Positions 6 to 58,127 of a stretch of 64,000 nt of DNA are shown here, in pieces (the stretch's first letter is position 1; every line of letters starts with the position of its first letter). The translations under genes were made by a program, and so were the position numbers. Origin of the DNA: Nitrospirota bacterium (GTDB lineage Bacteria > Nitrospirota > Thermodesulfovibrionia > Thermodesulfovibrionales > Dissulfurispiraceae); contig JBFLWF010000007.1 of assembly GCA_040758355.1 (NCBI GenBank), positions 38,573 through 102,572 on the forward strand, read 5' to 3'. Below the pieces are notes generated by a model that made no database searches, was not told the DNA's origin, and was given only the letters and a program-made list of their open reading frames with translations.

Positions 6-1772
6 GTGAGGGTAGGCTTTTCGAAATCCACCATGAAAGAGACCGAGAACAGGATTGTTCTCAGGGGGCTCATGCTTGCGCTGATTTTTGCGGCAGGCAG
101 CAGTGTTGTCGTCTACTTCCTGATTACCATAGCCACACGTCCTCTTGCAGTGCTCTCCGGTGCAGTAAAGAGGATCGGGGAAGGAGAATATCCTGAAATA
201 AAGATAGAGCCCACAGGTGACGAGATCGGTGAACTCGCCCATGAGTTTAACAGGATGACCACTGCAATAAAGGATAGAGAGTCGAAAATAATGGAGTCCG
301 AAAAGAAGATAAGGGATCTCTTCGAAAGGGTCGAACATGCCATTTTCAGACTCGATAAAGACGGCAATATAATCGAGACAAACAGGAAGTTCGATGAGCT
401 CTGCGGCGGCGCAAATAGATTCTGCGGATTGTTCACATCTGACATGGAAGGACTTAGATTGCAAAAGGTCATATCTGCCGGTGGTTTGAAAAACGCAGAG
501 GAAAGGCTTATGGGAAAAGACGGCAATGAGCTTGTTGCTATTATGAGCGTATATCCTGAGTTTGACGAACAGGGCGCTGTCACAGGCTTTGACGGCTATT
601 TCGTTGACATAACAGAAAAGAAGAGACTGGAAGAGACTCTTGTCCAGACCCAGAAGCTGGACAGCCTCGGAATGCTTGCAGGCGGAATCGCCCATGACTT
701 CAATAATATCCTGACAGGCGTTCTGGGGTACGCATCGTTATTGAAGACCGTGGTGCCGGAGACGGACAAGATGTATAAGTATATCGATATCATAGAAAAA
801 TCCGCATCGAGGGCGGCAAACCTCGCACAGCAGCTCCTGGGCTTTGCGAGAAAAGGCAAATACGTTATGACGAAATTATCGATCAACGACCTTGTGAAGG
901 AAATGTCTTCATTCTTAAAGGAGACCTTTGACAGGAGCATAACGATCGTTGTGGATACCGAAGAAAATCTTCCGCCTGTGGAAGGGGACAGCAACCAGCT
1001 CTATCAGGCGCTCATGAATCTCTGCATAAATGCACGGGACGCAATGCCGGAAGGTGGCAGGCTTTATATAAAGACCGAATTCTATCTGCTTCATGACGAA
1101 AAGGTTGTCGACTATTTCCAGATTCCTCCGGGCGAGTATGTCCGTGTGAGCGTCACGGATACCGGTGTCGGCATGCCTCCAGATGTGAAGAAGAAGATAT
1201 TCGAGCCTTTCTATACAACAAAGGGTATTGGCAAAGGGACGGGTCTCGGTCTTGCCATGGTTTACGGGATAATAAAAAACCACGGGGGATACATCACAGT
1301 CTATTCGGAGATAGGACTGGGCACCACTGTGCGTTTATATCTGCCAAAGGGAGACGGGGCCGTGGAGGAAAAAAGGAGGGACAAAGTTATGAACGAAAGA
1401 CCTAAAAAGGGTACGATCCTTCTTATCGATGACGAGGAGGTGGTAAGGGAACTCGGGAAAGATATCCTTGAGGCGTACGATTATGAAGTGATTCTTGCTA
1501 TCCACGGAAACGAAGGAGTGCGCATGTTCAACGAATATAAAGACAGGATTGACCTCGTCATCCTCGATATGGTAATGCCTGAAAAGGGCGGCAGACAGAC
1601 ATTTAAGGAGATAAGGTCGTTAAAGCCGGATGCAAGGGTGCTGATATGCAGCGGATATGGCGAAGAGCAGTATTTTTATGAGTTGTTCGAGGCCGGGGCA
1701 GCAGGCTTCCTTCAGAAGCCGTTTCAACATACAGAACTGCTGAGCAAGGTTGAGGAGGCAATGGCAAGATGA
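6..1772 (+). CDS. Hybrid sensor histidine kinase (HAMP-PAS-HisKA-HATPase-REC), 5' end probably outside window
   Basis: H-box LAGGIAHDFNNIL, N-box NLCINARDAM, G-boxes DTGVGM/GKGTGLGL, receiver LLIDDE..DMVMP..FLQKPF. Confidence 0.92.
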   Translation: MRVGFSKSTMKETENRIVLRGLMLALIFAAGSSVVVYFLITIATRPLAVLSGAVKRIGEGEYPEIKIEPTGDEIGELAHEFNRMTTAIKDRESKIMESEKKIRDLFERVEHAIFRLDKDGNIIETNRKFDELCGGANRFCGLFTSDMEGLRLQKVISAGGLKNAEERLMGKDGNELVAIMSVYPEFDEQGAVTGFDGYFVDITEKKRLEETLVQTQKLDSLGMLAGGIAHDFNNILTGVLGYASLLKTVVPETDKMYKYIDIIEKSASRAANLAQQLLGFARKGKYVMTKLSINDLVKEMSSFLKETFDRSITIVVDTEENLPPVEGDSNQLYQALMNLCINARDAMPEGGRLYIKTEFYLLHDEKVVDYFQIPPGEYVRVSVTDTGVGMPPDVKKKIFEPFYTTKGIGKGTGLGLAMVYGIIKNHGGYITVYSEIGLGTTVRLYLPKGDGAVEEKRRDKVMNERPKKGTILLIDDEEVVRELGKDILEAYDYEVILAIHGNEGVRMFNEYKDRIDLVILDMVMPEKGGRQTFKEIRSLKPDARVLICSGYGEEQYFYELFEAGAAGFLQKPFQHTELLSKVEEAMAR

Positions 1773-1775
1773 GCT

Positions 1776-2621
1776 ATGAGCTATGAGCCAATAATTACCC
1801 CTCATATTTTCAGTGGGTTTCCTGTAAAGGCCTTTTTCACAACAAAGACATTGGACAGTTTGGAGTTTGGAGTTGAGAGTGCGGAGTTAAAGGGAAAGGT
1901 TTCCAAATTGTTGAACATATCGCCAAAGAATATCTACCTTCCTATCCAGAAACACACAGACAAGGTCTTAATCGTGGATTATGACGTTGAGCCCAAAATA
2001 GCAGACGCTGTTATTACTAACAGGGAAGACATCTTGATTGGAGTTCAGGTTGCAGACTGTGTGCCTATTCTTTTATATGATATGCAAAAGAATGTTGTTG
2101 GAGCCGTCCATGCAGGATGGCGGGGGACTGCAGAAGAGATTCTGAAGAAGACTATAAAGGCAATGATGGATAGATTTTGCTCAATACCGTCTGATATAGT
2201 GATTGCTATAGGTCCCGGCATAAGGTGGTGCTGTTACGGGGTTGGTTACGAAGTAATAGAGGCAGTTGAGAAAGTGACGAGTTATGGGGACTGTCCCAGA
2301 TTTACGGACGCCGACAGGCGTCCCCTCACCTGTCATTGCGAGGGACGAAGTTCCGAAGCAATCTCGTCCGTTCGGGGCAGGCTCCGAATCGGGACTGTCC
2401 CCGCTCCAAAGTCAAAAAACTACATAATTAAAAAGGGTGAGAAATACTGTCTTGATTTACCGACTGCAAATAAATATCAGGCACTTTCTTTAGGTGTCCC
2501 ATTAGAAAATATATGGATGTCTGATGAATGCACATTCTGCCTCCCTGAAAAATATTATTCATACAGGTATGCAAAGGGAACAACCGGGAGGCAGTGCGGA
2601 TTTATAGGGATTGTAACATGA
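1776..2621 (+). CDS. pgeF: YfiH/PgeF family protein (laccase-like purine nucleoside phosphorylase) with in-frame repeat inserts
   Basis: QKHTD, ADAVIT, VADCVPILL, HAGWRG, IGPGI..CCY, YYSYR motifs. Confidence 0.88.
   Translation: MSYEPIITPHIFSGFPVKAFFTTKTLDSLEFGVESAELKGKVSKLLNISPKNIYLPIQKHTDKVLIVDYDVEPKIADAVITNREDILIGVQVADCVPILLYDMQKNVVGAVHAGWRGTAEEILKKTIKAMMDRFCSIPSDIVIAIGPGIRWCCYGVGYEVIEAVEKVTSYGDCPRFTDADRRPLTCHCEGRSSEAISSVRGRLRIGTVPAPKSKNYIIKKGEKYCLDLPTANKYQALSLGVPLENIWMSDECTFCLPEKYYSYRYAKGTTGRQCGFIGIVT
2286..2402. repeat. Nested palindromic (REP/RPE-like) insert in pgeF
   Basis: Bounded by GGGGACTGTCCC (2286-2297) and GGGACTGTCCCC (2391-2402); 117 bp, frame preserving; internal hairpins. 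Confidence 0.8.
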
Positions 2622-3051
2622 TTACACAGATTAAAATAGATTACACAGATTATGGAAAATAGGGACCCTCTTACAGAGCAGATAATAGCATGTTGTTACA
2701 GGGTTCACTCAGATTTAGGTCCTGGATTTAATGAGAGGATATATCATGCTGCTCTTAAAGTAGATTTTGAACAGCAGGGATTAAAATACGAAACGGAAAA
2801 GCGATTCGAAGTTTATTATCAAGGCAAAAAAGCAGGTAATTTTGTTGCAGACTTAGTTGTTGAGGATAAAATTATAGTTGAAATTAAGGCAGTATCTGGA
2901 AATATTCCAGATATTTTTAAATACCAGGTGCTTTCTTATCTAAAGGCATCTAATCTAAAGGTTGGCTTATTAGTTAATTTTGGGAATAAGAGTTGTCAAA
3001 TCAAAAGATTTGTGTTTTAATCTGTGTAATCTGATAAAATCTGTGTAATCA
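2619..3051. mobile_element. Inverted-repeat-bounded GxxExxY cassette
   Basis: GATTACACAGATT twice upstream (2620, 2639) and AATCTGTGTAATC twice downstream (3019, 3038), 19-bp period on both sides. Confidence 0.65.
2652..3020 (+). CDS. GxxExxY family protein (PD-(D/E)xK-like nuclease fold)
   Basis: GPGFNERIY contains GxxExxY; ADLVVEDKIIVEIK; C-terminal GLLVNFG; 122 aa. Confidence 0.92.
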   Translation: MENRDPLTEQIIACCYRVHSDLGPGFNERIYHAALKVDFEQQGLKYETEKRFEVYYQGKKAGNFVADLVVEDKIIVEIKAVSGNIPDIFKYQVLSYLKASNLKVGLLVNFGNKSCQIKRFVF

Positions 3052-3070
3052 AGATTAAAAAGGAGATACT

Positions 3071-3520
3071 ATGCTAAAAGCAAAAGACATAATGACGCGC
3101 GATGTTATAACAGTCAAACCAACCACCACCATAGAAGAGATGGCACGGATATTTATAGAAAAGAAAGTCAGCGGTGCGCCTGTGGTGGATGACAATGGTG
3201 ATGTAATAGGCATTGTTACCGAAAATGATCTCATAAGCCAGAATAAAAGGCTGCATATTCCGACTGTTGTGCGGCTGTTTGACGCCTTTATAATGCTCGA
3301 GAGCCCGAGCAAGATAGAAAAGGAAATCAAAAAGATGGCTGCGGTTACAGTGTCCGATATATGCGTCAGGGATGTCATAACAGTTGCGGAAGACACCGCC
3401 GTGGAAGACATAGCCACGATAATGTCTGAGAAGAAGGTGCATCTTATTCCTGTTGTTGAGGGCAAAAAGGTTCGCGGAATAATCGGCAAGATGGATATAA
3501 TCAAAGGGATGGTGAGATAG
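3071..3520 (+). CDS. CBS-domain pair protein
   Basis: KAKDIMTRDVITV..GAPVVD..GIVTENDL; second CBS repeat; SD AGGAG. Confidence 0.9.
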   Translation: MLKAKDIMTRDVITVKPTTTIEEMARIFIEKKVSGAPVVDDNGDVIGIVTENDLISQNKRLHIPTVVRLFDAFIMLESPSKIEKEIKKMAAVTVSDICVRDVITVAEDTAVEDIATIMSEKKVHLIPVVEGKKVRGIIGKMDIIKGMVR

Positions 3521-3585
3521 CTGATAGCTGATAGCTGATAGCTGATAGCAAAAGACTATGAGCTATGAGCTATGAGCCATGAGCT
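3516..3585. repeat. Paired near-inverted heptamer arrays (GATAGCT)x5 / (ATGAGCT)x4
   Basis: Direct reading; overlaps CBS stop and tsaE start. Confidence 0.9.
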
Positions 3586-7167: not shown

Positions 7168-7920
7168 ATGAACAAGATTGACAGCTTGAAAATAGTTCTT
7201 GAGTTTTATAAAGAACTCGGCTTTGAGAGACTGCCGCTTAATTACAGCGGTCAGCAGTCAGCAGTCAGCAATCAGGGCGTTAAACGAGCTGAACCTTTTG
7301 AACGAATTACTACTGTAGGCGGTTCAAGCCGTTCAAGAAGTTCAAATAGTCACAAAGAGGCTTTACTCAAGGTGATTCGCGATGAAATCGGCGACTGCCA
7401 GAGGTGCAAGCTTTCCATAGGAAGGACGCATATCGTCTTTGGCGAGGGCAATGCGAATGCAAAAATAATGTTTATCGGAGAGGGCCCTGGAAGGGAAGAA
7501 GACCTGCAGGCACGGCCTTTTGTAGGCGATGCAGGACAGCTTTTGACAAGACTCATTGAGAGGATGGGCTTTAAGAGGGAGGACGTGTATATTGCGAATA
7601 TCGTAAAATGCAGACCGCCCATGAACAGGGATCCGCAGGATGACGAGATATCTACATGTTTCCCTTTTCTTGATAAGCAGATCGATATAATATCTCCAGA
7701 AGTGATAGTGTCCCTCGGGAAGATATCCGCATACATGCTCATGGGAGTTAAAGGCCCTATAAGCAAATTCTCCATTACAAAGGTCCGTGGAAGATTTTAT
7801 GAATATAAGGGAATTCCTGTGATGCCCACATTCCATCCGGCGTATCTTTTAAGAAATCCAAAGGATAAGTGGCTTACATGGGAGGATGCGCAGGCAGTGC
7901 TTAAGAAGTTAAGTAAATGA
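7168..7920 (+). CDS. Uracil-DNA glycosylase family 4 (Fe-S)
   Basis: CQRCKL, FIGEGPG, NIVKCRPP, TFHPAYLLR. Confidence 0.93.
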   Translation: MNKIDSLKIVLEFYKELGFERLPLNYSGQQSAVSNQGVKRAEPFERITTVGGSSRSRSSNSHKEALLKVIRDEIGDCQRCKLSIGRTHIVFGEGNANAKIMFIGEGPGREEDLQARPFVGDAGQLLTRLIERMGFKREDVYIANIVKCRPPMNRDPQDDEISTCFPFLDKQIDIISPEVIVSLGKISAYMLMGVKGPISKFSITKVRGRFYEYKGIPVMPTFHPAYLLRNPKDKWLTWEDAQAVLKKLSK

Positions 7921-7977
7921 AGTAAATAAGTAAATAAGTGAATGAGGTGTCAATGACTTAATAACTCAATAACTTAT
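7911..7977. repeat. Paired inverted octamer arrays (AAGTAAAT-like / AATAACTC-like)
   Basis: Direct reading; overlaps udg stop. Confidence 0.8.
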
Positions 7978-10520: not shown

Positions 10521-10557
10521 CTGAATGGAGTATTGGAGTGATGGAGTAATGGAATAG

Positions 10558-12125: not shown

Positions 12126-13127
12126 ATGAGAATATGGAGTATTCGTGTTGCTGTCTTTGTGCTGTTTATTGCCTATTGCCTATTGCCTATTGCCTCATTC
12201 GCCGAGACCACCATAAGGGTATTGCTTGTTGACGGCAAGAATGCAAAGCTTCCCAAAAAGGACGAAAAGATTGAGAGGTTCGGCAATGCAAAGGGAGAAG
12301 TGCTTTTGAGCGGACTGAAGTATTCAGGTTCTATAGAGGTGTGGAAAGGGGACAACGGTCTTTACATTGTAAATGAAATACCCATTGAGGATTATATAAA
12401 GGGCGTTGTCGCCGGAGAGGTGGGAAATAGCTGGGATATAGAGGCGCTGAAGGCACAGGCTGTTGTGGCGAGGACTTATGCCCTTTATCAAAAGCTGAAT
12501 AGCAGTAAAATGCCTTATCATCTGACATCGTCCGTTCTTCATCAGGTCTATAAGGGCGGCAATATACCCGAGAATATAGCAAAGGCAGTGAATGATACGA
12601 GGGGCGAAATATTGACATATGAAGGCAAGCCGATAATCGCATACTATCATTCCACAAGCGGCGGCATGACAGAAGACCCTGCCGAGGTGTTTGGAAAGAG
12701 CTATCCATATTTGAAGCCAGTGGAGACGAGCTGCGAACTATCTCCTTATTTTATGTGGGAGAAACGCATACCTGTGTCCGAAATTGAGCGGGCATCAAAT
12801 GTGACAGGCGTAAAAGAGATTATGATAGATGATCTGACGGTTTCCAACCGTGCGAGGGATTTTAGGATTATTACAGAGAACGGTGAACATAAAATTCCCG
12901 CCAAGGAATTAAGGAAGAGCCTCGGCTGGGACAGACTGCCGAGCACCATGATAACAAATATCGCAAAGGACGAGGATTTCTACATATTCGAGGGCAGGGG
13001 CTACGGACATGGTGTCGGGATGTGCCAGTGGAGTGCCCTCGATATGGCAAAGAAGGGAACGAGTTACAGGGATATATTGTCTAAGTTTTATCCGGGGACT
13101 GTCATAGAGTTACATGAGAACCGCTGA
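12126..13127 (+). CDS. SpoIID/LytB family lytic transglycosylase
   Basis: EDYIKGVVAGE, EALKAQAVVARTY, GRGYGHGVGMCQW, FYPG. Confidence 0.9.
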   Translation: MRIWSIRVAVFVLFIAYCLLPIASFAETTIRVLLVDGKNAKLPKKDEKIERFGNAKGEVLLSGLKYSGSIEVWKGDNGLYIVNEIPIEDYIKGVVAGEVGNSWDIEALKAQAVVARTYALYQKLNSSKMPYHLTSSVLHQVYKGGNIPENIAKAVNDTRGEILTYEGKPIIAYYHSTSGGMTEDPAEVFGKSYPYLKPVETSCELSPYFMWEKRIPVSEIERASNVTGVKEIMIDDLTVSNRARDFRIITENGEHKIPAKELRKSLGWDRLPSTMITNIAKDEDFYIFEGRGYGHGVGMCQWSALDMAKKGTSYRDILSKFYPGTVIELHENR

Positions 13128-14157
13128 CTTTGATTTTTACCTGCCAAAGGATTTAATTGCATTAAGACCTTCGGAGAAACGGGATAATTCGAAGCTCCTC
13201 GTCCTGCACAGGGATGGAAGCATCGAGCACAGGAGGTTTTTTGATATTGCCGAATACCTGAAGGAAGGGGATATGCTTATGCTTAACAACACAAAGGTAT
13301 TCCCTGCAAGGATTATTGCAACAAAACCTTCAGGCGGGAAGATTGATGTTCTGCTCATTAAAGATACAAATGAGGATAGTACATGGGAGATAATGTGCAG
13401 GGGCAGGTTTAATGGCATGGTAACAATTGGTGATGGGGTTAAGGCAGAGGTGTGGACAGAAGAAGTCAAGAGTCAAGAGTCAAAAAAGTTTTTAAGGTTT
13501 TTGAATATAGAGCCATCAAAGGTTAATGATGTGTTCTGGCAATATGGCCGTATGCCTTTGCCTCCATACATAAACCGCATGCCTGACGATGCAGATAAAC
13601 AGAGATACCAGACCGTTTATGCAGAACATCAGGGGTCGATTGCTGCCCCAACTGCAGGCCTCCATTTTACCGAAGAGCTTCTCAATAAAATAAAAGATAA
13701 AGGTGTATCTGTTGAGGCATTGACACTTCATGTAGGTACTGGTACATTTAGACCTATAAAGACAGAGTACTTAGAAGATCACAGAATGGATTCAGAATAT
13801 TTTGAGATAAAATCATCTCTGGCGAATAAAATACAGAAGACAAAAGAGTCCGGCTGCAGGCTTATAACAGTAGGGACAACAGCAACAAGGGCGTTGGAGG
13901 GTTTTATGAGCGGTCTGTTTCAGAGACTCAGCTCTGTAAATGGTTCTGTGCGTGGATACACGGATATCTTTATATACCCGGGGTATAAATTTAGGGCAGT
14001 GGACAGCCTTATAACCAATTTCCATCTCCCGCGTTCCACTCCGCTGATGCTTGTATCTGCGTTGAGCGATTTCAAGAAAATATTACATGCTTACAAGGAG
14101 GCAATTGCCATGGGTTATAGATTTTTTTCCTATGGTGATGCTATGCTCATTTTATGA
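13114..14157 (+). CDS. queA: S-adenosylmethionine:tRNA ribosyltransferase-isomerase
   Basis: PLPPYI, YQTVYA, AAPTAGLHF, LHVGTGTF, TNFHLPRST, FFSYGDAM. Confidence 0.96.
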   Translation: MRTADFDFYLPKDLIALRPSEKRDNSKLLVLHRDGSIEHRRFFDIAEYLKEGDMLMLNNTKVFPARIIATKPSGGKIDVLLIKDTNEDSTWEIMCRGRFNGMVTIGDGVKAEVWTEEVKSQESKKFLRFLNIEPSKVNDVFWQYGRMPLPPYINRMPDDADKQRYQTVYAEHQGSIAAPTAGLHFTEELLNKIKDKGVSVEALTLHVGTGTFRPIKTEYLEDHRMDSEYFEIKSSLANKIQKTKESGCRLITVGTTATRALEGFMSGLFQRLSSVNGSVRGYTDIFIYPGYKFRAVDSLITNFHLPRSTPLMLVSALSDFKKILHAYKEAIAMGYRFFSYGDAMLIL

Positions 14158-14939
14158 GGGTTAGAGGACCGGAAAGATCGTCCATTTTGCTCCTCGGCAG
14201 AAGCACCGTGATTATCGGCGCCATTGTCATAACTGTCCTGAGTTTTGGCCTTGGATACTTCTGGGGATACAAGGGGAGTGACGTTTCCCAGACAGAGGAC
14301 GAGGTTAAAAAAGATACGGAACAGAAGGTGATTATTCCTCCTGAGGACAAAAGGGTGCTGGAGACTACTTCAACCACTCCAAAGGAGGCTCCTATAGCAC
14401 CTTCTATAAAGCCTCCTGAGTTCCCTCAGGAGACCACGCCTCAAAAATCAGCAGAGCCTGAAAAGGAGTTGCCCAAGGAGCAGAAAACTGCTGAGAGCAA
14501 AGCAGGTAAAAGCCATGGGGTAGAGATCGCAGAGGGCAGGGGTGAGCAGGCAGAGAAGGCAGAGAAGGATTCCTCAGAGGTGAAAGGGCCTGAAGTAAAG
14601 GCCGAAACAAAGGCCAAAACAAAGGAGAATACGCCTGCTGCCAATAAAGAAAAAAATACAGCAAAGAGTGCAGTAAAAAAGAATGCATTTCCAAAAACAT
14701 CAAAGTCCGTAAAACTTTATGCTATACAGTTTGGGGCATTCCCTAATAAAGAAGGGGCTGAGCAGCTCCGGCAAAGCCTGATCTCAAAGGGTATTAAGGC
14801 ATACATTGTCAGCAGGACCGAAAGCGATCCCTACTTCAGGGTAAGGGTAGGAACTTATAAAACCAAGAGAGAGGCTGATCTGGCAGCAGTATCACTGCAG
14901 AAGAGAACAGGAATGCAGAATTTTGTAACGGCTAAGTAG
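14154..14939 (+). CDS. SPOR-domain membrane-anchored protein
   Basis: N-terminal TM, low-complexity linker, YAIQFGAF..FRVRVG. Confidence 0.85.
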   Translation: MRVRGPERSSILLLGRSTVIIGAIVITVLSFGLGYFWGYKGSDVSQTEDEVKKDTEQKVIIPPEDKRVLETTSTTPKEAPIAPSIKPPEFPQETTPQKSAEPEKELPKEQKTAESKAGKSHGVEIAEGRGEQAEKAEKDSSEVKGPEVKAETKAKTKENTPAANKEKNTAKSAVKKNAFPKTSKSVKLYAIQFGAFPNKEGAEQLRQSLISKGIKAYIVSRTESDPYFRVRVGTYKTKREADLAAVSLQKRTGMQNFVTAK

Positions 14940-15017
14940 TAAATGAGTATATGGGTGAATGGGTATATGAGTAAGAAATATTACTCATCAACTCATATGC
15001 TCATCTACGCATTAACT
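14938..15017. repeat. Paired inverted octamer arrays (ATGAGTAA-like / TTACTCAT-like)
   Basis: Direct reading; begins at SPOR gene stop. Confidence 0.88.
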
Positions 15018-15035
15018 TTTAAATAGGAGGCATTT

Positions 15036-17646: not shown

Positions 17647-18046
17647 TCACCGCAGATACAGCTTTATCGAGTCTGCCGAGATAAGCGTGCTCTTTGTAAA
17701 TGACAGGAAGATGAGGGAACTGAATCTGCAGTATCGCGGGAAAGATAAAACTACCGATGTCCTGTCGTTCCCACAAATTGAACAGTTCAAACAGTTTAAA
17801 CGGTTTGAACTGTTAACTTCTCTCGGCGATATTGTTATTAACCTTTCCCAGGCAAAAAGGCAGGCGAAGGAACACGGGCTGACCTTTTATAATGAGATCG
17901 CATGGCTTCTAATTCATGGAACCCTCCACCTGCTCGGATATGACCATGAGAAGAATAAATACCAGGCAAGGAAGATGAGGGAGATGGAAAAAGAATTACT
18001 TACACTCCCTCTTAACACCATCAAGGAGGCTTCCTATCTGGTCTGA
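17549..18046 (+). CDS. ybeY: rRNA maturation endoribonuclease YbeY
   Basis: [35 protein letters not shown]. Confidence 0.93.
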
Positions 18047-20264: not shown

Positions 20265-20705
20265 CTACTGCATTACAAAATCAGTAAAATAAATATTTTT
20301 GACATTGCCTTCTCCCAGTATCCGATTCAATCCGGCAAGCAATTCATCTTTAAGCTGCTGCTTCCCTTCAAACGAAGATATGTCATCAGGGGACTTGCTT
20401 GTAACAAGCATAATGATTGCATCCCTGATGGCTCCTGTTTTTGTTTTTGCCTTTTCTGTTGCAGCCGGTGATGAAAGCTCAAGGTTTATGGACAGTTTTA
20501 AAAATCTGCTGCCCACATTCAGGATGAATGGTTCTAACTGAAACATTGGCGTTTCTGCATCCTTTTTTGAAGATTTGCTGGCGTAACTATCGGTTGTGAA
20601 AGCAGGGCACAGAAGACAGAAAACAGATAACAGACAAATCGAATATAAGAGATTTGTTTTAACTAATTGATTTGTAAGTTTTTTTTTTGGGGGGGGGGGG
20701 TAAAT
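20265..20705 (-). CDS. fliL: Flagellar basal body-associated protein FliL; start uncertain
   Basis: LEPFILN, RFLKLSINLE, IRDAII, GKQQLKDE, IYFTDFVMQ. Confidence 0.85.
   Translation of the reverse strand: MYPPPPKKKLTNQLVKTNLLYSICLLSVFCLLCPAFTTDSYASKSSKKDAETPMFQLEPFILNVGSRFLKLSINLELSSPAATEKAKTKTGAIRDAIIMLVTSKSPDDISSFEGKQQLKDELLAGLNRILGEGNVKNIYFTDFVMQ
20679..20700. repeat. Homopolymer tract T10G12 (C12A10 on the coding strand)
   Basis: Direct reading. Confidence 0.9.
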
Positions 20706-20946: not shown

Positions 20947-21882
20947 ATGACCATACACCCTATGCTCGCAAAATCATCCCGCCCCTTTGATTCTGAGAAC
21001 CACACCTTTGAATTGAAATGGGATGGCACACGCTGTATTGCATTTGTGGATAGGAACAATATAAGGCTCCAGAACAGGAGACTCCTTGATATAACCTACA
21101 GGTATCCCGAATTTCAACAATTAAAAAAATATCTCAAAGTAAAATCCGCTGTCTTTGATGGAGAGATTGTTGTTTTGAGGGAAGGAATACCGAATTTCGA
21201 AAAACTCCAGCAGAGGGAACACATAGAGAATATGGAGAGGATCGAGATATTGTCGGGGCTTATTCCTGCCACATATGTGGTTTTCGATCTCCTGTATCTG
21301 AATGGAAAGTCAATAATGCATAAACCACTTGCAGAAAGAAGGGATTTGTTAAGAGGCTTGTTCCCAATGTCAGATAATGTCATATTGTCTGAATCCTACA
21401 GCGAAGGGAAAAAGCTATTTAAGATGGCTTTAAAGAAGGGATTCGAAGGCATAATGGCAAAGGAAAAGACAAGTCCCTATCTGCAGGATGAAAGGTCTGG
21501 ATACTGGTTGAAGATTAAGAAATTTTCTGATGTCGATGCTGTTGTGTGCGGTTACCTTGAAGGCGAGGGCAGCAGGAAGGATTATTTTGGATCTCTAATC
21601 CTTGGCGTGTATGATAAAGGCAAGCTAAGACATATCGGCCAGGTAGGAACAGGCTTTGATGAGAAGATGATAAAACGCTTATTCAATATATTGAGCAGTA
21701 TGAAGACAGACATCTCTCCTTTTGATACGGTTCCTGAATTAAAGAGGAGGGCATTCTGGTGCAGGCCGGAAATTGTCGTAAGGGTTGGTTATCATGAATG
21801 GACAAAGGACAATAAATTGGGGGTTCCTGTATTTAAAGGTATAAGGGATGACAAGGGGCCGGAGGAATGCAGGTTGGAGTAA
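20947..21882 (+). CDS. ligD: ATP-dependent DNA ligase (LigD ligase domain only)
   Basis: ELKWDGTR, FDGEIV, VFDLL, EGIMAK, WLKIK, VGTGF; adjacent to Ku. Confidence 0.9.
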   Translation: MTIHPMLAKSSRPFDSENHTFELKWDGTRCIAFVDRNNIRLQNRRLLDITYRYPEFQQLKKYLKVKSAVFDGEIVVLREGIPNFEKLQQREHIENMERIEILSGLIPATYVVFDLLYLNGKSIMHKPLAERRDLLRGLFPMSDNVILSESYSEGKKLFKMALKKGFEGIMAKEKTSPYLQDERSGYWLKIKKFSDVDAVVCGYLEGEGSRKDYFGSLILGVYDKGKLRHIGQVGTGFDEKMIKRLFNILSSMKTDISPFDTVPELKRRAFWCRPEIVVRVGYHEWTKDNKLGVPVFKGIRDDKGPEECRLE

Positions 21883-21934
21883 TGGAGCATTGGAGTATTG
21901 GAAAAGACATTACTCCATCACTCCAATACTCCAT
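21874..21934. repeat. Paired inverted octamer arrays (TTGGAGTA / TACTCCAA-like)
   Basis: Direct reading; between convergent ligD and ku stops. Confidence 0.88.
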
Positions 21935-21935
21935 G

Positions 21936-27484: not shown

Positions 27485-28270
27485 TTACATATGAAAATAC
27501 CACTTGAGTATCTCGCCGCCAAAAAACAGGGTAATGATTGAGCCGAGAGCCAGAAACGGGCCGAACGGTATCTTCGTCTTTCTTCCCTTTCCCTTAAAGA
27601 CCATGAGAAATATTCCGACTATAGAGCCAACGAGACTTCCTATGAATGTTGTAAGGAAAACAGCCTTCCATCCCATGAATGCGCCCACCATTGCCATCAA
27701 TTTAATATCGCCGCCTCCCATTCCTCCCCGGCTGAGGATTGCAATGAGATAAAATAATCCGCCGCCTATAAACAAGCCTGCAATGGAGTTTTTAAAGCCA
27801 ACGACTGAAAGGCTGAAGGCTGAAGGCTGAAGGCTGAAAGGATCTGGGAGCAAAAAAGATGCTGATAGAAGGCTAATGACAATTCCCGGAAGTGTTATTA
27901 CATCAGGTATTATCTGAAAATCCAGATCGATAAAGGTTATCACAATCATCGCAGACACAAAGACAAAGAGAAATGGCAGATGCCATCCATATCCAAAAAA
28001 ATTGGAAGCTGCCCAGTAGAGGATGCCGTTTAATAATTCAACCATTGGATAGCGTATGGAAATGCTTTCGCCGCATTTCCTGCATTTGCCTTTTAAAAAA
28101 ATATAGCTGAGTACAGGTATATTATCCCACGGCTTAATAGGTGTGTTGCATGCAGGACATGACGATGACGGTCTTATTATTGAGATGTTTCTCGGCAATC
28201 TGTATATGCAGACATTCAGGAACGACCCGACTATGAGGCCTAATAAAAAAATAATTATTATCATCATCAT
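27485..28270 (-). CDS. pilD: Prepilin peptidase
   Basis: GSFLNVCIYRLP, CPAC..CRKC, IDLDFQIIPD, GMGGGDIKL, PFGPFL. Confidence 0.93.
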   Translation of the reverse strand: MMMIIIIFLLGLIVGSFLNVCIYRLPRNISIIRPSSSCPACNTPIKPWDNIPVLSYIFLKGKCRKCGESISIRYPMVELLNGILYWAASNFFGYGWHLPFLFVFVSAMIVITFIDLDFQIIPDVITLPGIVISLLSASFLLPDPFSLQPSAFSLSVVGFKNSIAGLFIGGGLFYLIAILSRGGMGGGDIKLMAMVGAFMGWKAVFLTTFIGSLVGSIVGIFLMVFKGKGRKTKIPFGPFLALGSIITLFFGGEILKWYFHM

Positions 28271-36611: not shown

Positions 36612-36686
36612 TGAGTGAGTAAATGAGTAAATGGGTGAATGAGTAAATGAAAATTTTTTACTCATTTACTCATCCACTCATTCACT
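36612..36686. repeat. Paired inverted octamer arrays (ATGAGTAA / TTACTCAT)
   Basis: Direct reading; overlaps secG stop. Confidence 0.88.
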
Positions 36687-44075: not shown

Positions 44076-44749
44076 TGCAACTAAGATTGCCATTCGTACT
44101 TAATGAAGACTCACTCAGGGACTATCTCGGGAAGATAACAGGCAAAAGCATTTCCTTAAAGATTACAGACAACTCCACCAGCATGATTTCATTGAAGACA
44201 AAAGGCGGGATTGTGCATGTCAGGCTTCACAGGATTTTTCTTGATGCAGGCAATAATGTTATTTTCGAGATAGCGCAGTTCATAAAAAACAGAAAGGCAA
44301 GGACGCCGCTCATCAGAGATTTCATAAAGCAGAACAGTAATTGCCTGAAGAAGAAGCCTCCCAAAAAATTAAGTATTAATACACAGGGTAAATATTACGA
44401 CCTTCGTGAAATATATGCAAATGTAAACGGTGAATACTTTAACGGAAGGGTTACAGCCTCTATTACATGGGGAATAAAGATCTCCCGTTATGCTGTGAGA
44501 AGGAGGACACTTGGAAGTTACAGCAGCCATACGAATACCATAAGGATCAATCCAATTCTCGATAAAAAATCGGTTCCACGTTATTTTATAGAATTCATTG
44601 TTTACCATGAAATGCTCCATGCCGACATGGATGTTGAGGCCAAAAACGGCAGGCGTTCTGTGCATTCGAGAGAATTCAAAAGGCGAGAGAAATTGTTCAA
44701 ACATTACGAAAGGGTTGTGGCTTGGGAGAAGGGAAAGGCAGTGGAGTGA
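44075..44749 (+). CDS. SprT-like/M48-like zinc metalloprotease
   Basis: RTLGSY..IRINPILD..YHEMLH..HSREFK. Confidence 0.8.
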   Translation: MQLRLPFVLNEDSLRDYLGKITGKSISLKITDNSTSMISLKTKGGIVHVRLHRIFLDAGNNVIFEIAQFIKNRKARTPLIRDFIKQNSNCLKKKPPKKLSINTQGKYYDLREIYANVNGEYFNGRVTASITWGIKISRYAVRRRTLGSYSSHTNTIRINPILDKKSVPRYFIEFIVYHEMLHADMDVEAKNGRRSVHSREFKRREKLFKHYERVVAWEKGKAVE

Positions 44750-44764
44750 TGGAGGAATGGAGCA

Positions 44765-44914
44765 TTGAAAGGGAAAAATAAAATTGGAAAAAAGAAGAGG
44801 GAAGAAAAAACTCCAAAAAGACAGCAGATTTCCATATGTACAAATAAAGACTGCAAATTAAGAAAGGCAGGGTGCAAGGGATTTGAGGCATGTCCCGGCT
44901 ATAAAGGCAGATAG
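44765..44914 (+). CDS. Small basic 4-Cys protein (49 aa, below ORF-track cutoff)
   Basis: GGAGG at 44751, TTG start; MKGKNKIGKKKREEKTPKRQQISICTNKDCKLRKAGCKGFEACPGYKGR. Confidence 0.55.
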   Translation: MKGKNKIGKKKREEKTPKRQQISICTNKDCKLRKAGCKGFEACPGYKGR

Positions 44915-48627: not shown

Positions 48628-49316
48628 AAGAGCTTATAAGTGTAGAAGGACTCGAAAAATCATTCTATATGCCTGCTGGAGAGCTGAAGGTCTTAAAAGG
48701 AATAGATGCAGTTTTCAATGAAGGAGAGGTAGTCAGCATTGTTGGCGCCTCTGGAGCTGGAAAGAGCACTTTTTTACATGTCCTTGGAACCCTCGATAAA
48801 CCGACATCTGGAAAAGTAATTTACGAACCTGAAATTAATCCCTTTGATTTAAGCAATGGAGAACTTGCGATTTTTAGAAATAAGGTAATAGGATTCATTT
48901 TCCAATTTCATTATCTCCTTCCTGAATTCAGCGCCATAGAGAATGTGATGATGCCGGGAATGATAGCAGTAAGCCATCAGCCGTCAGCCATCAGCCATAG
49001 AGAACTATACGAAAAGGCGGAAAAACTTCTTGATGAGCTTGGTTTATATGCAAGGAAGGATCACAAGCCCGGAGAATTGTCGGGCGGAGAACAGCAGAGG
49101 GTTGCTGTTGCAAGGGCATTATTGCTTGCTCCGAAGGTTGTTCTTGCAGACGAGCCTACAGGCAACCTCGATGCAAAGACAGGAGAAGAACTCTTCAAGC
49201 TGCTGATGGATATAAATCAAAAGCACGGCATAACTTTCATCATTGTAACCCACAATGAATCCCTATCAAAGAGATGCCACAGGACACTGGAGATGGTTGA
49301 CGGGAAGTTGCGTTGA
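48624..49316 (+). CDS. lolD: Lipoprotein-releasing ABC ATPase LolD
   Basis: GASGAGKST, FQFHYLLPEF, LSGGEQQRVA, DEPTGNLD. Confidence 0.92.
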   Translation: MKELISVEGLEKSFYMPAGELKVLKGIDAVFNEGEVVSIVGASGAGKSTFLHVLGTLDKPTSGKVIYEPEINPFDLSNGELAIFRNKVIGFIFQFHYLLPEFSAIENVMMPGMIAVSHQPSAISHRELYEKAEKLLDELGLYARKDHKPGELSGGEQQRVAVARALLLAPKVVLADEPTGNLDAKTGEELFKLLMDINQKHGITFIIVTHNESLSKRCHRTLEMVDGKLR

Positions 49317-51753: not shown

Positions 51754-53478
51754 ATTAACAAAGAAGAATTGGAGATTCTCCGCCACAGCACATCCCATGT
51801 AATGGCGCATGCTATAAAGGACTTATTCCCTGACGCAAAGCTTGCCATAGGCCCTGCAACTGAAAACGGCTTTTATTATGATATCGATAGAGATGTTCCT
51901 TTTACTCCCGAAGATCTGGAAAAGATAGAAAAGAGGATGAAGGAGATTATCAAAAAGAACAACCCCTTTGTCCGCAAAGATATCTCAAAAACAGAGGCCA
52001 TAGAACTATTTAAAAAGATGGGCGAGAATTACAAAGTAGAGCTTTTGCAAGAAATACCGGACGAGACGGTATCCATATATGAAGAGGGCGGATTTGTCGA
52101 CCTTTGCAGGGGCCCACATCTTCCAAATACAGGAAAGGTAAAGGCATTCAAGCTTTTAAGCATTGCAGGCGCATACTGGCGTGGGGATGAAAAGAACAAG
52201 ATGCTCCAGAGGATTTACGGAACTGCATTTGACAATAAGGATGACCTGAATGCATATCTGAATTTCCTTGAAGAGGTCAAAAAGAGAGACCATAGAAAGC
52301 TCGGCAAAGAACTGGATCTCTTCAGTCTCAGCGATGAGATAGGTCCCGGACTCATCCTGTGGCATCCCAATGGTGCGATTATAAGAAAGACCATCGAGGA
52401 CTTCTGGAGAAACGAGCATATAAAGGCTGATTATAAGATTCTCTATACGCCGCATATCGCCAAGTTGAATCTATGGCAGAGGAGCGGCCACTGGGATTTC
52501 TACAGGGAAAACATGTATTCACCCATGGAGATAGACGAGGTTGCTTATGAATTAAAGCCGATGAACTGTCCATTCCATATAGACATTTATAAAAGTTCTT
52601 TGAAGAGCTATAGGGAATTGCCAATAAGATATGCTGAGCTCGGCACAGTTTATAGATATGAGCGTTCAGGGGTTTTGCACGGACTTCTCAGGGTAAGGGG
52701 CTTTACACAGGATGATGCACACATATTCTGCAGGGAAGACCAGATAGGGGATGAAATACTGAACATCCTCGATTTTACGCTCTTTATACTCAGGACATTC
52801 GGATTTGACGCATACGATGTTTATCTTTCAACCCGCCCTGAAAAATATGTGGGAACTCTGGAAAACTGGGAAAGTGCAACCAATGCCTTAAAACATGCCC
52901 TTGAGAAAAAGGGTTTGTCTTACCAGATAGACCCCGGGGAGGGTGTATTCTATGGACCCAAGATAGACATAAAGATAAAGGATTCACTGAACAGGTCATG
53001 GCAGTGCAGCACCATACAGGTTGACTTTAATAATCCAGAAAGGTTCGATGTCACATACAGGGGGAGCGACGGCAAAGAGCACAGACCTATAATGATCCAC
53101 AGGGCATTGATGGGCTCACTCGAAAGATTTTTCGGCATTCTTATAGAGCATTATGCAGGAGCGTTCCCTTTGTGGCTTTCACCTGTGCAGGCATCGGTAT
53201 TGACCATAGCAGAAAGACACGATGATTATGCAAAAGAAATATATAAAAAACTTAGAGAATCTGATATAAGAGTTGAGATTGTTCTTGAAAATGAAAAGAT
53301 AGGATACAAAATACGAGAAGCAACCGTGAGAAAAATCCCGTATCTTGTTATAATAGGCGACAAGGAAATTGCTGAAAATAAAATAACGGTCAGGAAGAGA
53401 AACGGCGAAAACATCGGGCCATTTACAATTGAGCAATTTATAGATATAATCAAAGACGAAATAAATACTCGTAAATGA
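51754..53478 (+). CDS. thrS: Threonyl-tRNA synthetase lacking N-terminal TGS domain; start ATT 51754 or TTG 51769
   Basis: [40 protein letters not shown]. Confidence 0.96.
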
Positions 53479-53542
53479 GTAAATAAGTAAATGAGTAATT
53501 GAAAAATAATGACTCAATAACTCAATAACTTAATAACTTAAT
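53471..53542. repeat. Paired inverted octamer arrays
   Basis: (GTAAATGA)-like then (AATAACTC)-like; overlaps thrS stop. Confidence 0.85.
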
Positions 53543-53557
53543 TTCGGAGGTGATAGC

Positions 53558-54061
53558 ATAAGTAAGGACACTGTAAGAGTTAACGAGGGGATAAGGGCAC
53601 GAGAAGTAAGACTCATCGATGATGAAGGCAAACAGCTCGGAGTGGTCTCTGTTCAGGAAGCTATCCGGATAGCACGGGATAGGGGTTATGACCTTGTCGA
53701 GGTTGCCCCCAATGCCACGCCGCCTGTCTGCAGGATAATGGATTACGGCAAGTATAAGTACCAGATGAGTAAAAAGCACGCAGCGCGGAAGACCATCGAT
53801 GTCAAGGAAGTAAAGATAAGGCCCCAGATAACAGACCACGACCTTCAGCTAAAGGTCAAAAATATCAGGAGATTCCTGGATGACGGCGACAAGGCCAAGG
53901 TTACCATGTTTTTCAGAGGGCGTGAGATTGTGAGGCCGGAATTGGGAATGAAGTTATTTGACAGGATACAGGAACTGCTTACCGGAAAGTTTCAGGTAGA
54001 ACAGCCGCCTAAGCTGGAAGGCAAGAGCATTACCATGGTGATAGCGCCATCAAGTAAGTAA
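53558..54061 (+). CDS. infC: Translation initiation factor IF-3, ATA start
   Basis: GGAGGTG then ATA AGT AAG..; VRVNEGIRAREVRLID, DLVEVAP..PPVCRIMDYGK, FRGRE. Confidence 0.95.
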   Translation: MSKDTVRVNEGIRAREVRLIDDEGKQLGVVSVQEAIRIARDRGYDLVEVAPNATPPVCRIMDYGKYKYQMSKKHAARKTIDVKEVKIRPQITDHDLQLKVKNIRRFLDDGDKAKVTMFFRGREIVRPELGMKLFDRIQELLTGKFQVEQPPKLEGKSITMVIAPSSK

Positions 54062-54128
54062 ATAAGTTATTAAGTGAATGAGTAAATGGGTAACCTCAAT
54101 AACTTAATAACTCAATGACTCGATTACT
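54056..54128. repeat. Paired inverted octamer arrays
   Basis: Direct reading; overlaps infC stop. Confidence 0.82.
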
Positions 54129-54153
54129 ATTTGTTTTAGAGAGGAGGATAGAA

Positions 54154-54354: not shown

Positions 54355-54355
54355 G

Positions 54356-54506: not shown

Positions 54507-54854
54507 ATGCCCAGGGCAAAAGGTGGTTTTAAGACAAGGAGATACCATAAGAAGGTCATGGATATGGCAAAAGGCCAGTACGGTGGAAGGCACCGTGTTT
54601 ACAAGGTCGCTGCCCAGGTCGTTGACAAGGGTCTCCTCGCAGCCTATAAAGATAGAAGGCTTAAAAAGCGTGAATTCAGGGCATTATGGATTGCAAGGAT
54701 CAATGCCGCTGTCAGGTCCCTCGGTATGTCTTACAGCCAGTTTATGAACGGGTTGAAAAAGGCAAACATTACCTTAAACAGAAGGGCCCTTGCCGATCTG
54801 GCATACAACGATCCCAAAGCCTTCAGCGAACTGGCAAATCAAGTAAAAGGTTAA
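54507..54854 (+). CDS. rplT: 50S ribosomal protein L20
   Basis: [37 protein letters not shown]. Confidence 0.96.
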
Positions 54855-54929
54855 TGGGTTAATGGGTGAATGAGTTAATGGGTGAATGAGTTAATGGGTG
54901 AAAACTCATATGCTCATTTACTCATTTAC
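54849..54929. repeat. Paired inverted octamer arrays (TTAATGGG-like / ACTCATTT-like)
   Basis: Direct reading; overlaps rplT stop. Confidence 0.88.
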
Positions 54930-54942
54930 ATTCTAAAGTCCT

Positions 54943-55950: not shown

Positions 55951-58050
55951 ATGCGCGTCCCTTTTGAATGGTTAAAAGAATTTATCGACATTAAGGAGTC
56001 GCCTCATGATGTTGCCCACAGGCTTACCATGATAGGTCTTGAGGTAGAGGCTGTCGAGCAGGTGGACAGTGATGTTGTCTTCGAGGTAAATGTCACTCCA
56101 AACAGGCCTGACTGTCTGAGCATTATCGGCATTGCGCGGGAGCTTTCTGCCGCATATAAAACCCCTCTTGTATTTCCTGATCACGATGTCCTTGCAGAAA
56201 CCGGGGAGCTTGATTTTAATGTTGATATTGTTAATGTTGATCTCTGCCACAGGTATGCAGGAAGGGTTGTGAGGAATCTCAAAATAGGCCCTTCACCTGA
56301 GTGGCTGAAGAAAAGGCTCGAAAAGTGCAGTATAAGATCGATCAATAATATTGTGGATGTCACGAACTATGTGCTTCTGGAATTGGGTCATCCCCTCCAT
56401 GCCTTTGACCTTAAAACTATTAAAGGCCGCCGCATTATAGTCGGTACATCTCATAGCATCAAGGGGATAGGGGCAAGGATCAAGTTTAAGACACTGGACG
56501 GTATCGAGCGTGAAATGCCTGATGACTCTTTACTCATATGGGATGCTGAAAGACCGATAGCAATTGCCGGCGTTATGGGCGGCATGGAAACAGAGGTTGC
56601 AGATTCCACTATGGACATATTTATCGAGAGCGCCTATTTCGAGCCGGTGTCTGTGAGAAGGACATCGAAGGCCCTCGGGTTGAAGACAGAATCCTCTTAC
56701 AGGTTCGAAAGGGGAACGGATATAAAGATGCTCAAGAAGGCCCTTGACAGGGCAGCATATCTGATGAAGGAAGTGGCGGGCGGCACTATTTGCGGAAAGA
56801 TAGATATTTATCCAAAGAGATACAAACCTGATGAGATAAATGTCAGATACAATAAGGTCAATGAGACACTCGGATTGAAGCTGACCAAAGAAGAGATTAT
56901 AGATTGTCTCGATGGATTGGGTTTCGAGATGAAAAAGTTGGCAAACAGCCTGAAGATAAAACCTCCGGCATACAGAAGGGATATAAAGAGGGAGATCGAT
57001 GTTATAGAAGAGGTTGCGAGGATTTATGGCTACGACAGGATTCCTGCACAACTGCCCAAGGCAACCATAGGCATAGATAGTCAGCAGTCAGCAGTCAGCA
57101 GTCAGCAGTCAAAGATTAAAAATAATATAAAGGAATCGCTTTTAAAATCAGGCTTTACAGAGGTAATCAACTACAGCTTCACGGGTATGCAGGACATCGA
57201 TCTGCTTGGAATCGGCGAAGACGATGAAAGAAGAAATCTCGTGCAGATAAAGAATCCATTGAAAATAGAAGAGTCATTTATGAGGACAACCCTGATGCCG
57301 GCATTTATAAAAGATCTGATTCACAACGTATCACACGGCAACAGGGAATTGAGATTATTCGAGATAGCAAGGGTGTTTATAAAAAGCAGTCAGGTTGAAG
57401 AGTCCGGTCTCCCGGAAGAGCGTGAACATCTTGCCGCCCTTTATTACAAGGAGAAAAGCAAGGCATTGTACAGGGATGATACGCCGGATTTTTATATCGT
57501 CAAAGGTGTTATCGAAGCTATTCTCAACGACCTCAAGATTTATGACTACTCATTTGTCAGGTCATCGGAGCCCTTTTTGCATCCCGGGCAGTCTGCAGAC
57601 ATATTCATAATGGACACTAAAATAGGATATGTTGGCGCCCTTTCTCCTGCTATTGTGGATTCTCTCGATATAAAGGCACACAAGCCTTCTGTCATTGTGA
57701 TGGAGATAGATATCGACAGCATAATCCCGTATGCAATGCAGGTGGTGAAATACAGACCGCTGCCAAGGTATCCATACATAGAAAGGGATACGGCGATAAT
57801 AGTAGATTCCTTACTTGAAGCAGCGATGCTCATGAAATGGCTAAAATCGTATCCTTCGGACCTTATTGAGGATATTTATGTCTTTGATGTCTATCAGGGG
57901 AAGAATATTCCTGAAGGCAAAAAGAGCATTGCGTTTAATGTGAGGTACAGGGCATCGGACAGGACTCTGAAGGACGATGAGATCGATACCCTGCACAAAT
58001 CACTGGTGGATTATATTCTCGATAAGTCTAAAGGACAACTAAGGCAGTGA
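55951..58050 (+). CDS. pheT: Phenylalanyl-tRNA synthetase beta subunit, short form
   Basis: TPNRPDCLS, SINNIVDVTNY, SSYRFERG, DVIEEVARIYGY, RDTAI. Confidence 0.95.
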   Translation: MRVPFEWLKEFIDIKESPHDVAHRLTMIGLEVEAVEQVDSDVVFEVNVTPNRPDCLSIIGIARELSAAYKTPLVFPDHDVLAETGELDFNVDIVNVDLCHRYAGRVVRNLKIGPSPEWLKKRLEKCSIRSINNIVDVTNYVLLELGHPLHAFDLKTIKGRRIIVGTSHSIKGIGARIKFKTLDGIEREMPDDSLLIWDAERPIAIAGVMGGMETEVADSTMDIFIESAYFEPVSVRRTSKALGLKTESSYRFERGTDIKMLKKALDRAAYLMKEVAGGTICGKIDIYPKRYKPDEINVRYNKVNETLGLKLTKEEIIDCLDGLGFEMKKLANSLKIKPPAYRRDIKREIDVIEEVARIYGYDRIPAQLPKATIGIDSQQSAVSSQQSKIKNNIKESLLKSGFTEVINYSFTGMQDIDLLGIGEDDERRNLVQIKNPLKIEESFMRTTLMPAFIKDLIHNVSHGNRELRLFEIARVFIKSSQVEESGLPEEREHLAALYYKEKSKALYRDDTPDFYIVKGVIEAILNDLKIYDYSFVRSSEPFLHPGQSADIFIMDTKIGYVGALSPAIVDSLDIKAHKPSVIVMEIDIDSIIPYAMQVVKYRPLPRYPYIERDTAIIVDSLLEAAMLMKWLKSYPSDLIEDIYVFDVYQGKNIPEGKKSIAFNVRYRASDRTLKDDEIDTLHKSLVDYILDKSKGQLRQ

Positions 58051-58127
58051 ATAGTCGATAGTGAACAGTGAATAGTTAAAGGAATTCAAATTTTTATTTT
58101 TTACTATATGCTGTTCACTATTCACTA
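58046..58127. repeat. Paired inverted heptamer arrays (AGTGAAT / ATTCACT)
   Basis: Direct reading; supplies stops of convergent pheT and copZ-like genes. Confidence 0.82.

Follow-up and report, generated by a model that had tools for sequence, protein, structure and literature searches.

What kind of process fills the gene junctions of a bacterial genome with short, degenerate tandem repeats that face each other as inverted pairs? The question is raised by a stretch of 64,000 nucleotides from a Nitrospirota bacterium of the family Dissulfurispiraceae (assembly GCA_040758355.1, contig JBFLWF010000007.1, positions 38,573 to 102,572; "the window" in the following, with positions counted from its first letter). 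An initial annotation of the window had described nine inverted pairs of 7/8-mer arrays and three solo arms, nearly all on stop codons. We located all 12 sites, 11 of which overlap a stop codon (the exception, an arm at 10524, starts 4 nt past the ruvA stop), and the nine pairs form long, imperfect hairpins with folding z-scores of -2.9 to -6.9 against dinucleotide shuffles (9/9). The arrays are very probably parts of small gene-carrying cassettes. Our favored and, we think, probable account is more specific, namely that they are the arms of selfish micro-cassettes akin to rRNA intervening sequences (IVSs), together with deletion derivatives of such cassettes, spread by short-homology recombination.

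The phenomenon extends far beyond the window. The genome-wide repeat scan that the initial annotation had proposed, run on the whole assembly (2.77 Mb in 93 contigs, 99% complete; called G000 in comparisons), found 545 arrays of period 7, 8, or 9 (370, 140, and 35, respectively), whereas an equally long order-5 Markov control gave 5 (1, 1, and 3). Tandem Repeats Finder (TRF) showed the same period peak as our custom scanner, and periods 5, 10, and 11 stayed at background level across the assembly. The commonest units are degenerate tandem 7-, 8-, or 9-mers of many families without G-tracts. The polarity seen in the window, with a G-rich arm 5' and a C-rich arm 3', held genome-wide in 85 of 96 close inverted pairs (p 3e-15). 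Separately, a control that only complements the sequence is not independent where units are near-palindromic. The 11 pairs with the other order include A-rich families that each keep a fixed order of their own (5:0 and 2:0). Arm order is thus fixed within families, with ten motifs contributing 60 pairs one way and 1 the opposite way.

A filled cassette that the initial annotation had not listed lies in the window itself, at 2620..3050. It consists of a 9-mer left arm (2620-2652), a forward-strand gene for a GxxExxY protein of 122 aa (2652..3020) and an inverted 9-mer right arm (3018-3050). The protein belongs to the PD-(D/E)xK family (PF13366, 1.4e-36; TIGR04256, 136 bits against a cut-off of 35) and has an intact D-x9-E-x-K motif. 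Four congeners and one further family member are syntenic with the window and were compared with it junction by junction. At this junction, the cassette is missing in G001, G003, and G004, while G002 keeps the last bases of the gene and the right arm; contigs of runs X2, X4, and X6 skip the cassette, and another X4 contig has it. In G034, which belongs to another genus, a GxxExxY cassette occupies the same junction with 94% nucleotide identity from arm to arm versus 74-80% in the flanks, and four-fold degenerate sites of G000 and G034 agree at 34 of 39 positions in the cassette (0.87) versus 0.37-0.39 in three flanking genes. A PF05635 cassette compared between G003 and G034 gave a weaker version of this pattern (22/29, 0.76, versus 13/36, 0.36, and 22/40, 0.55); the excess similarity across genera comprises these two cases, both involving G034. 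Since silent-site identity in the cassette is far above that of the flanks, the comparison points to lateral transfer of the GxxExxY cassette between genera. Beyond the family, inverted arms were found at 62 of 73 usable GxxExxY loci (of 80) compared to 5 of 68 control windows, in records from Omnitrophota, Elusimicrobia, WOR-3, Planctomycetia, Deltaproteobacteria, Nitrospirota, Nitrospinota, Clostridia, and others. As a separate observation, G004 and G006 (L042, L047/L050) have an unrelated armless insert of ~600 nt at the junction matching 2620-3050.

The second cargo is the PF05635 four-helix bundle. Four arm pairs of this genome spaced 350-400 nt apart, chosen by their repeats alone, each enclose a full-length PF05635 gene; of two further PF05635 matches, one is longer and has 9-mer repeats, and the other is an arm-bracketed remnant of 45 codons. 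Conversely, when 2437 genes of up to 1.5 kb were tested for inverted periodic flanks, 14 passed, and the top three were the GxxExxY gene and two PF05635 genes. The suspected link of the arrays to four-helix-bundle and GxxExxY genes therefore holds in this genome. Across 41 genomes of the family, 103 PF05635 matches occur in 32, and inverted arms were present at 45 of the 67 loci with flanks read (mostly full-length genes, with fragments and weak matches left out). The initial annotation had also suggested that repeat load goes with both gene families, and among the genomes sampled for PF05635 the load was near zero where this family is missing. One stretch of up to 20 kb was drawn per genome from 40 members of the family, and the 38 stretches of at least 8 kb were used. 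The 9 genomes without PF05635 had 1 array in 171 kb, compared to 49 arrays in 551 kb for the 29 genomes that have it (Spearman 0.38, p 0.02), and GC content was unlinked. Two loci, L121 and L123, have weak armless PF05635 matches followed by sequence that by eye resembles the template repeat of a diversity-generating retroelement (DGR), and are probably true Avd genes.

Empty pairs and filled cassettes also share a vocabulary. When units of empty pairs were compared with filled units of other genomes, 61 of 94 matched in the same orientation, compared to 16 in reversed orientation and a mean of 31 (maximum 41) for letter-shuffled units; for 7-mers alone, the values were 37 of 45 versus 16 reversed and 23 shuffled. 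The main 8-mer family of the window surrounds PF05635 in 1 of 390 genomes of the class (L245, whose left arm overlaps the upstream stop) as well as in 5 of 19 metagenome matches. A tree built from 67 proteins (105 columns, with many forks left unresolved) has several well-supported clades whose members use one unit in more than one genus, and one genome can hold several clades. The tree shows that arms travel with their gene, which does not by itself demonstrate co-evolution. Some loci are laid out as left arm, gene, left arm, loop, right arm or as left arm, loop, right arm, gene, right arm, which is what recombination of a cassette into an empty copy's arm would be expected to give. Of 52 loci that are filled with PF05635 in relatives, 20 have their counterpart at 16 junctions of our genome; judged by eye, 9 of these junctions are armless here (one in a continuous gene, at low identity), 5 are empty and partly decayed pairs, 1 is filled with a different PF05635 gene, and 1 could not be assigned. 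At L052 and L060, a gene seems to be interrupted by an armed PF05635 cassette, and a distant homolog of that gene is continuous in our genome (C2 near 113.5 kb; 37-55% identity).

From these observations, we propose the following scheme. In a cassette, one small gene for a PF05635 four-helix bundle or a GxxExxY nuclease would stand between a left arm, made up of about four degenerate units of 7, 8, or 9 bases, and an inverted right arm, with each cassette lineage having its own unit and fixed arm order. The pairs of the window would be gene-less derivatives and the solo arms single remaining arms. Short homology at the ends of the arms, often a stop codon contained in the units, or homology within an arm that is already there may let an incoming or resident donor be copied into a site by recombination, and a cut at the hairpin possibly initiates this copying. 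Slippage would then alter unit number, deletion would remove the gene or one arm, and selection would retain only those copies that end a gene near its normal place or that occupy a loop in frame and free of stops. The small protein presumably acts on its own arms. The proposal of the initial annotation that the pairs are empty sites of cassettes thus stands insofar as they are the gene-less form of an arm-gene-arm unit, but the more fitting reading is that of deletion derivatives, not of pre-insertion sites, because true pre-insertion alleles carry no arms.

For the route of movement, copying-in by short homology without a transposase has, in our judgment, an even chance of being correct. A profile search of the 99%-complete genome gave 0 matches to the reverse transcriptase family PF00078, and the two Y1 transposases (PF01797) had no such arms in the 900 bp read around each. 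No arm-flanked transposase was found, the bracketed genes among those of up to 1.5 kb being PF05635 and GxxExxY (Y1 was the one transposase family searched by profile), and comparing bare with occupied alleles by eye gave no consistent target-site duplication, in flanks that are too diverged for a formal test. These results together favor short-homology copying-in. In viral contigs, one PF05635 query found 0 relatives and GxxExxY gave a single weak, partial match; such single-protein queries reach close relatives only.

Several findings weigh against this account. None of the nine paired sites of the window is filled in any of the relatives compared, so that the expectation of filled and empty alleles is borne out for single junctions elsewhere, where bare, empty, and filled states exist, but not for the sites that inspired it. 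Empty pairs were not enriched at junctions that are filled in relatives (2 of 14 versus 6%, p 0.2, in a uniform test omitting one filled junction and one inside a gene), nor with relaxed cut-offs tried afterwards (3-4 of 14 versus 10-17%, p 0.16-0.27). Once the 8-mer copies found with targeted patterns are left out, the vocabulary match drops to 39 of 94 versus 27 shuffled (maximum 37), and 14 of the 19 metagenome matches to the 8-mer pattern had no match to the PF05635 alignment profile; frames from 11 of these 14 loci, scanned against Pfam, included no PF05635. Furthermore, arrays were absent from the samples of 14 of the 29 genomes with PF05635 (the sampled stretches are small and kin not independent), and GxxExxY was found in just 3 of 41 genomes of the family. 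A full insertion rich in stop codons is a difficult origin for solo arms in essential genes. Finally, sequence comparison identified no catalytic mobilizer and observed no movement, and we know of no activity for PF05635.

The individual sites of the window illustrate how quickly such junctions change, since among relatives one and the same junction may be bare, carry the same family at another copy number, or carry a different one. Two sites belong to the 7-mer GATAGCT family. The solo arm of right-arm type at 1769..1789, on a histidine-kinase stop and the next start, is shorter in G002 and absent in G001, G003, and G004, and the empty pair at 3516..3585, from the stop of a CBS gene to the start of tsaE, has the same family in G001, another in G002 and G004, and none in G003 and G006. 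The 8-mer pair on the uracil-DNA glycosylase stop (7911..7977) faces junctions without arms in G001, G002, and G004, and contigs of runs X2 and X6 are 45 nt shorter there. Between ruvA and ruvB, our genome has a solo 8-mer left arm (10524..10556) and the relatives show three other states, an 8-mer pair in G001 and a 7-mer family in G002 and G003. The 8-mer pair at 14938..15017, on the stop of a SPOR gene upstream of phoH, has no counterpart in G001 and is represented by two different 7-mer families in G002 and G004, all three unit families beginning at the same stop codon. An 8-mer pair of the TGGAGTA family between the convergent genes ligD and ku (21874..21934) provides the stop of ligD and is absent in G001 and G002, while the 8-mer pair on the secG stop (36612..36686) has the same family in G001, G002, and G004. 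A solo 8-mer left arm lies on the stop of an SprT-like gene (44741..44768).

The 8-mer pair between thrS and infC (53471..53542) varies in copy number in G002, G004, and G010 and is absent in G001 and G006; that between infC and rpmI (54056..54128) corresponds to a bare spacer of 19-21 nt in G001, G003, and G010 and to other families in G002, G004, G006, and G030. The 8-mer pair between rplT and pheS (54849..54929) has the same family in G001 and G004, others in G002, G003, G006, G009, and G016, and a bare junction in G011, so that 8-, 7-, and 9-mer versions exist across relatives. The 7-mer pair of the AGTGAAT family on the pheT stop (58046..58127) is replaced by an 8-mer family in G001 and missing in G003. 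Three side observations concern genes next to these sites. phoH (15020-15465) has a ribosome-binding site and an open frame with no ATG, GTG, or TTG before 15465, likewise in congeners, which suggests a non-canonical start; infC and tsaE resemble it in this respect, and the right arm at 3572 gives tsaE an ATG here. The convergent genes for an ATP-dependent ligase and Ku (20947-22709) are at the same place in G001 and G002 and unmatched in G003, G004, and G006. End joining by this pair could be a capture route for arm fragments.

How far do the arrays favor gene ends? Based on our own gene calls on the assembly, 69 of 75 junction pairs lie between co-directional genes (55.6 expected by length, 62.2 by count), 4 between divergent, and 2 between convergent ones. 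In the proposed check of distance to stop codons, 39 of the 69 co-directional pairs were found overlapping the upstream stop and 59 beginning no more than 10 nt from it; in spacers with at least 40 nt left over, 16 of 21 pairs are closer to the stop than to the start (p 0.03). Of all 545 arrays, 14% touch a stop compared to 3% under random placement. The suggestion that the elements insert at gene ends fails as a general rule, since 284 arrays (52%, versus 80% under random placement) lie inside open reading frames (ORFs), a group not listed in the initial annotation. Among 264 in-gene 7/8-mer units, 195 have a stop on the non-coding strand alone and 18 on the coding strand alone, and in 45 of 68 junction pairs, the half nearer the gene has stops in all three frames. 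An arm that lands in the last codons ends the gene itself, and a deeper arm survives only if it is stop-free. Because the arms are rich in stops, their overlap with stop codons is partly a survival filter and no proof of targeting.

An in-frame position is recorded for the in-gene arms of the window except those in the SpoIID-domain gene and fliL, and the forward strand for all but the fliL arm unless stated otherwise. A laccase-domain gene has a solo arm of 9 extra codons (1857..1874) that is absent in G001, G002, and G003 and in contigs of X2 and X3. The linker of uracil-DNA glycosylase carries a solo arm at 7245..7275 where G001 and G006 have other unit families, and the start of a SpoIID-domain gene, with a solo right-type arm (12167..12195), shows several unit families over six genomes. 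The solo arm in queA (13464..13483) has 21 additional nt in G002 and is absent in G001; a 9-mer arm in ybeY (17781..17814) sits in a loop that holds 7/8-mer families in G003 and G006. In the fliL reading frame, a solo 7-mer arm lies toward the 5' end (20609..20634); its units resemble, in a comparison by eye, the IVS heptamer of Coxiella as given in PMC4990558. A prepilin peptidase gene on the reverse strand has a solo arm (27809..27838), and its relatives show three families between identical flanking codons, one in G000, G003, and G004, one in G002, and one in G001. Solo arms further occur in a LolD-like ABC ATPase gene (48972..48998; other families in G001 and G006) and in pheT (57079..57111; an AGTCAAG family instead in G002, G003, and G006). 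Such swaps of unrelated units in the same loop between sister species were seen in uracil-DNA glycosylase, YbeY, LolC, LolD, and several PheT loops. In this lineage, the arrays rewrite C-termini, supply starts and stops, and give essential enzymes (PheT, LolD, prepilin peptidase, YbeY, QueA, RecG) additional loops, differently in each sister species. Further small palindromic modules are nested in arms or in the same loops (L036 and L035 in G003; L043 in G004; L049 in G006), so that several families of micro-elements use these sites. A composite hairpin repeat of ~110 nt (2284-2403), in frame in the laccase-domain gene, is missing from G001-G004 or has another form there, and run X2 skips it; judged by eye, its core is similar to hairpins of the NTS/SRM type in PMC11893778.

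The strongest alternative is an RNA-templated addition in which cassette RNA held by an Avd-like four-helix-bundle pentamer templates an in-trans reverse transcriptase or primase-polymerase that writes units into breaks, so that arms are made afresh. We keep it as a candidate, albeit an unlikely one, because PF05635 resembles Avd, the RNA-binding partner of the DGR reverse transcriptase (PMC10053308 and 10.1101/2023.10.23.563531, as far as their available parts go; 2GSC match), and because solo arms are hard to reach via full insertion. The arms also mix unit variants, with an arm's own partner fitting better than those of other copies in just 44 of 87 cases. Conversely, the genome lacks a PF00078 match, the Avd model scores 22 bits against a cut-off of 80 (by both measures, no DGR is matched), a nuclease gene of unrelated fold is packaged alike, and there is no folding preference for the transcribed strand (47 versus 36 of 83, p 0.36). 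The strand and partner counts likewise give no sign of selection on RNA structure.

A second alternative holds that the host retains a system like Ssn/NTS, whose small protein binds or cuts single-stranded arms and thereby tunes DNA uptake or recombination, with the repeats persisting as its sites. The shared layout of a small gene flanked by its own dispersed repeat (PMC11893778, partial text), the intact catalytic motif of GxxExxY, and the way in which the unit follows the protein clade would all fit. We nevertheless consider it quite improbable, as sites are not conserved between sister species and families swap, several cassettes are broken, and PF05635 is unmatched in 9 of 41 genomes of the family. 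Polymerase slippage that makes ordinary simple sequence repeats, combined with selection of their inverted partners for mRNA hairpins, could explain why unit number varies between relatives, with frame-keeping steps in ORFs, and slippage has been proposed for the excess of heptamers (as cited in the accessible part of PMC4692102). As the sole cause it is contradicted, and even in this combined form we give it very little credence, since a limited unit vocabulary recurs over sites and genomes, arm order is fixed per family, unrelated units replace one another between the same flanking codons, and arms bracket two specific gene families; the initial annotation had dismissed plain slippage as well, rightly in light of these data. 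Lastly, a role as functional terminators or selected mRNA processing or stability elements has hardly any chance and we reject intrinsic terminators, for despite stable hairpins directly past stops and an RNase III-cut stem in the related rRNA IVS (PMC4990558, partial text), U-tracts follow just 4 of 68 pairs on the sense strand and 8 of 68 on the antisense strand, convergent genes flank only the 2 of 75 junction pairs mentioned above, many arrays lie inside operons and ORFs, folding has no strand bias, and sites are absent from sister species, quite unlike the conserved ordinary terminators that the initial annotation had named as the refuting case.

Which known systems come close? The nearest precedent for the empty pairs are the GGGAATC arrays of Xanthomonas (Rehm et al. 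2015, PMC4692102; consulted as partial text), with about four degenerate 7-base units that often form convergent inverted pairs (70 cases in Xanthomonas campestris pv. campestris). Like ours, they lie near or on stops, between aligned ORFs, and sometimes within genes; they were assigned no function and not associated with mobile elements. That work describes one G-rich family read as a G-quadruplex and stable between two species, whereas our genome has tens of 7/8/9-mer families mostly without G-tracts, fast turnover, and filled copies; its commonest units lack the G-tracts of the G-quadruplex-capable unit GGGNATC. In the table of the same paper, repeat 15 overlaps the start of XCC0516, with no partner arm listed. 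XCC0516 is the four-helix-bundle protein of structure 2GSC, a link that the main discussion of PMC4692102, in its available part, does not draw. The phenomenon is real and not ordinary; the architecture of empty paired heptamers is already published for Xanthomonas. A published link of that architecture to the cassettes, or one joining arrays, cassettes, and PF05635/GxxExxY, was not found in a search that was thin on subscription journals, including the accessible parts of PMC5524665 and PMC4060949.

REPIN/RAYT and Ssn/NTS offer the nearest functional analogies, and they and the rRNA IVS each differ from the cassettes in a defining feature. The 23S rRNA IVS of Coxiella and Leptospira has an S23p/PF05635 gene in the loop of a terminal stem and variable tandem heptamers before the start codon (PMC4990558, partial text) and thus shares with our elements the PF05635 ORF within a terminal inverted repeat and the tandem heptamers in the stem. 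By contrast, our copies are in and between protein genes, numerous, mostly gene-less, and have GxxExxY as a second cargo. No copy was seen in 23S rRNA, G000 having no assembled 23S gene and G003 having two of 3037 nt, one of which was scanned and is free of arrays. REPIN/RAYT elements share inverted hairpin doublets that are non-autonomous, with a rare flanked gene as presumed driver (PMC3116915, partial text), but differ from our degenerate tandem arms, which have no conserved palindromic REP, flank no Y1 transposase, and lie in ORFs in half of all cases. Ssn/NTS resembles the cassettes in its small gene flanked by a repeat that is dispersed in the genome; it has a GIY-YIG nuclease and a 28-nt hairpin and its NTS is rarely found in genes (PMC11893778, accessible text), as opposed to the PD-(D/E)xK (PF13366/TIGR04256) or four-helix-bundle protein and tandem arms seen here. 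The TAACTGA repeats of Beggiatoaceae are lineage-patchy heptamers near gene ends like ours, with no cassette or filled/empty relation described in the available part of PMC4679880.

Lineage-patchy arrays near gene ends or in-frame repeats in housekeeping genes are familiar from other bacteria too, as in the short tandemly repeated repetitive (STRR) sequences of cyanobacteria and the palindromic elements (RPE) of Rickettsia. If the cassette reading is correct, it offers a testable source for the bacterial excess of 7-base repeats. It would also connect the abundance of heptamer arrays, the origin of ORF-bearing rRNA IVSs, and the function of the common, uncharacterized PF05635 and GxxExxY families, and the pairing of unit and protein permits a direct binding test. 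As a tentative and rather doubtful extension, the cassettes might be a class of mobile DNA without transposase, integrase, or reverse transcriptase of its own, in which both proteins recognize their own units, drive cassettes back into gene junctions across genera and phyla, and leave the paired and solo arrays behind. Under this extension, the heptamer excess would largely be a footprint of these elements, with rRNA IVSs and the arrays of Xanthomonas as special cases.

Three further features of the window are mentioned for completeness. A 212-nt element with terminal inverted repeats, similar to transposable elements of the miniature inverted-repeat kind (MITEs), lies between ruvC and ruvA (9682-9893), has up to 18 overlapping genome matches, and is skipped in run X2. 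A dispersed repeat of ~210 nt (61937-62150) has up to 16 overlapping genome matches, and a HepT-like/nucleotidyltransferase gene pair at 49321-50173 forms a module of toxin-antitoxin type.

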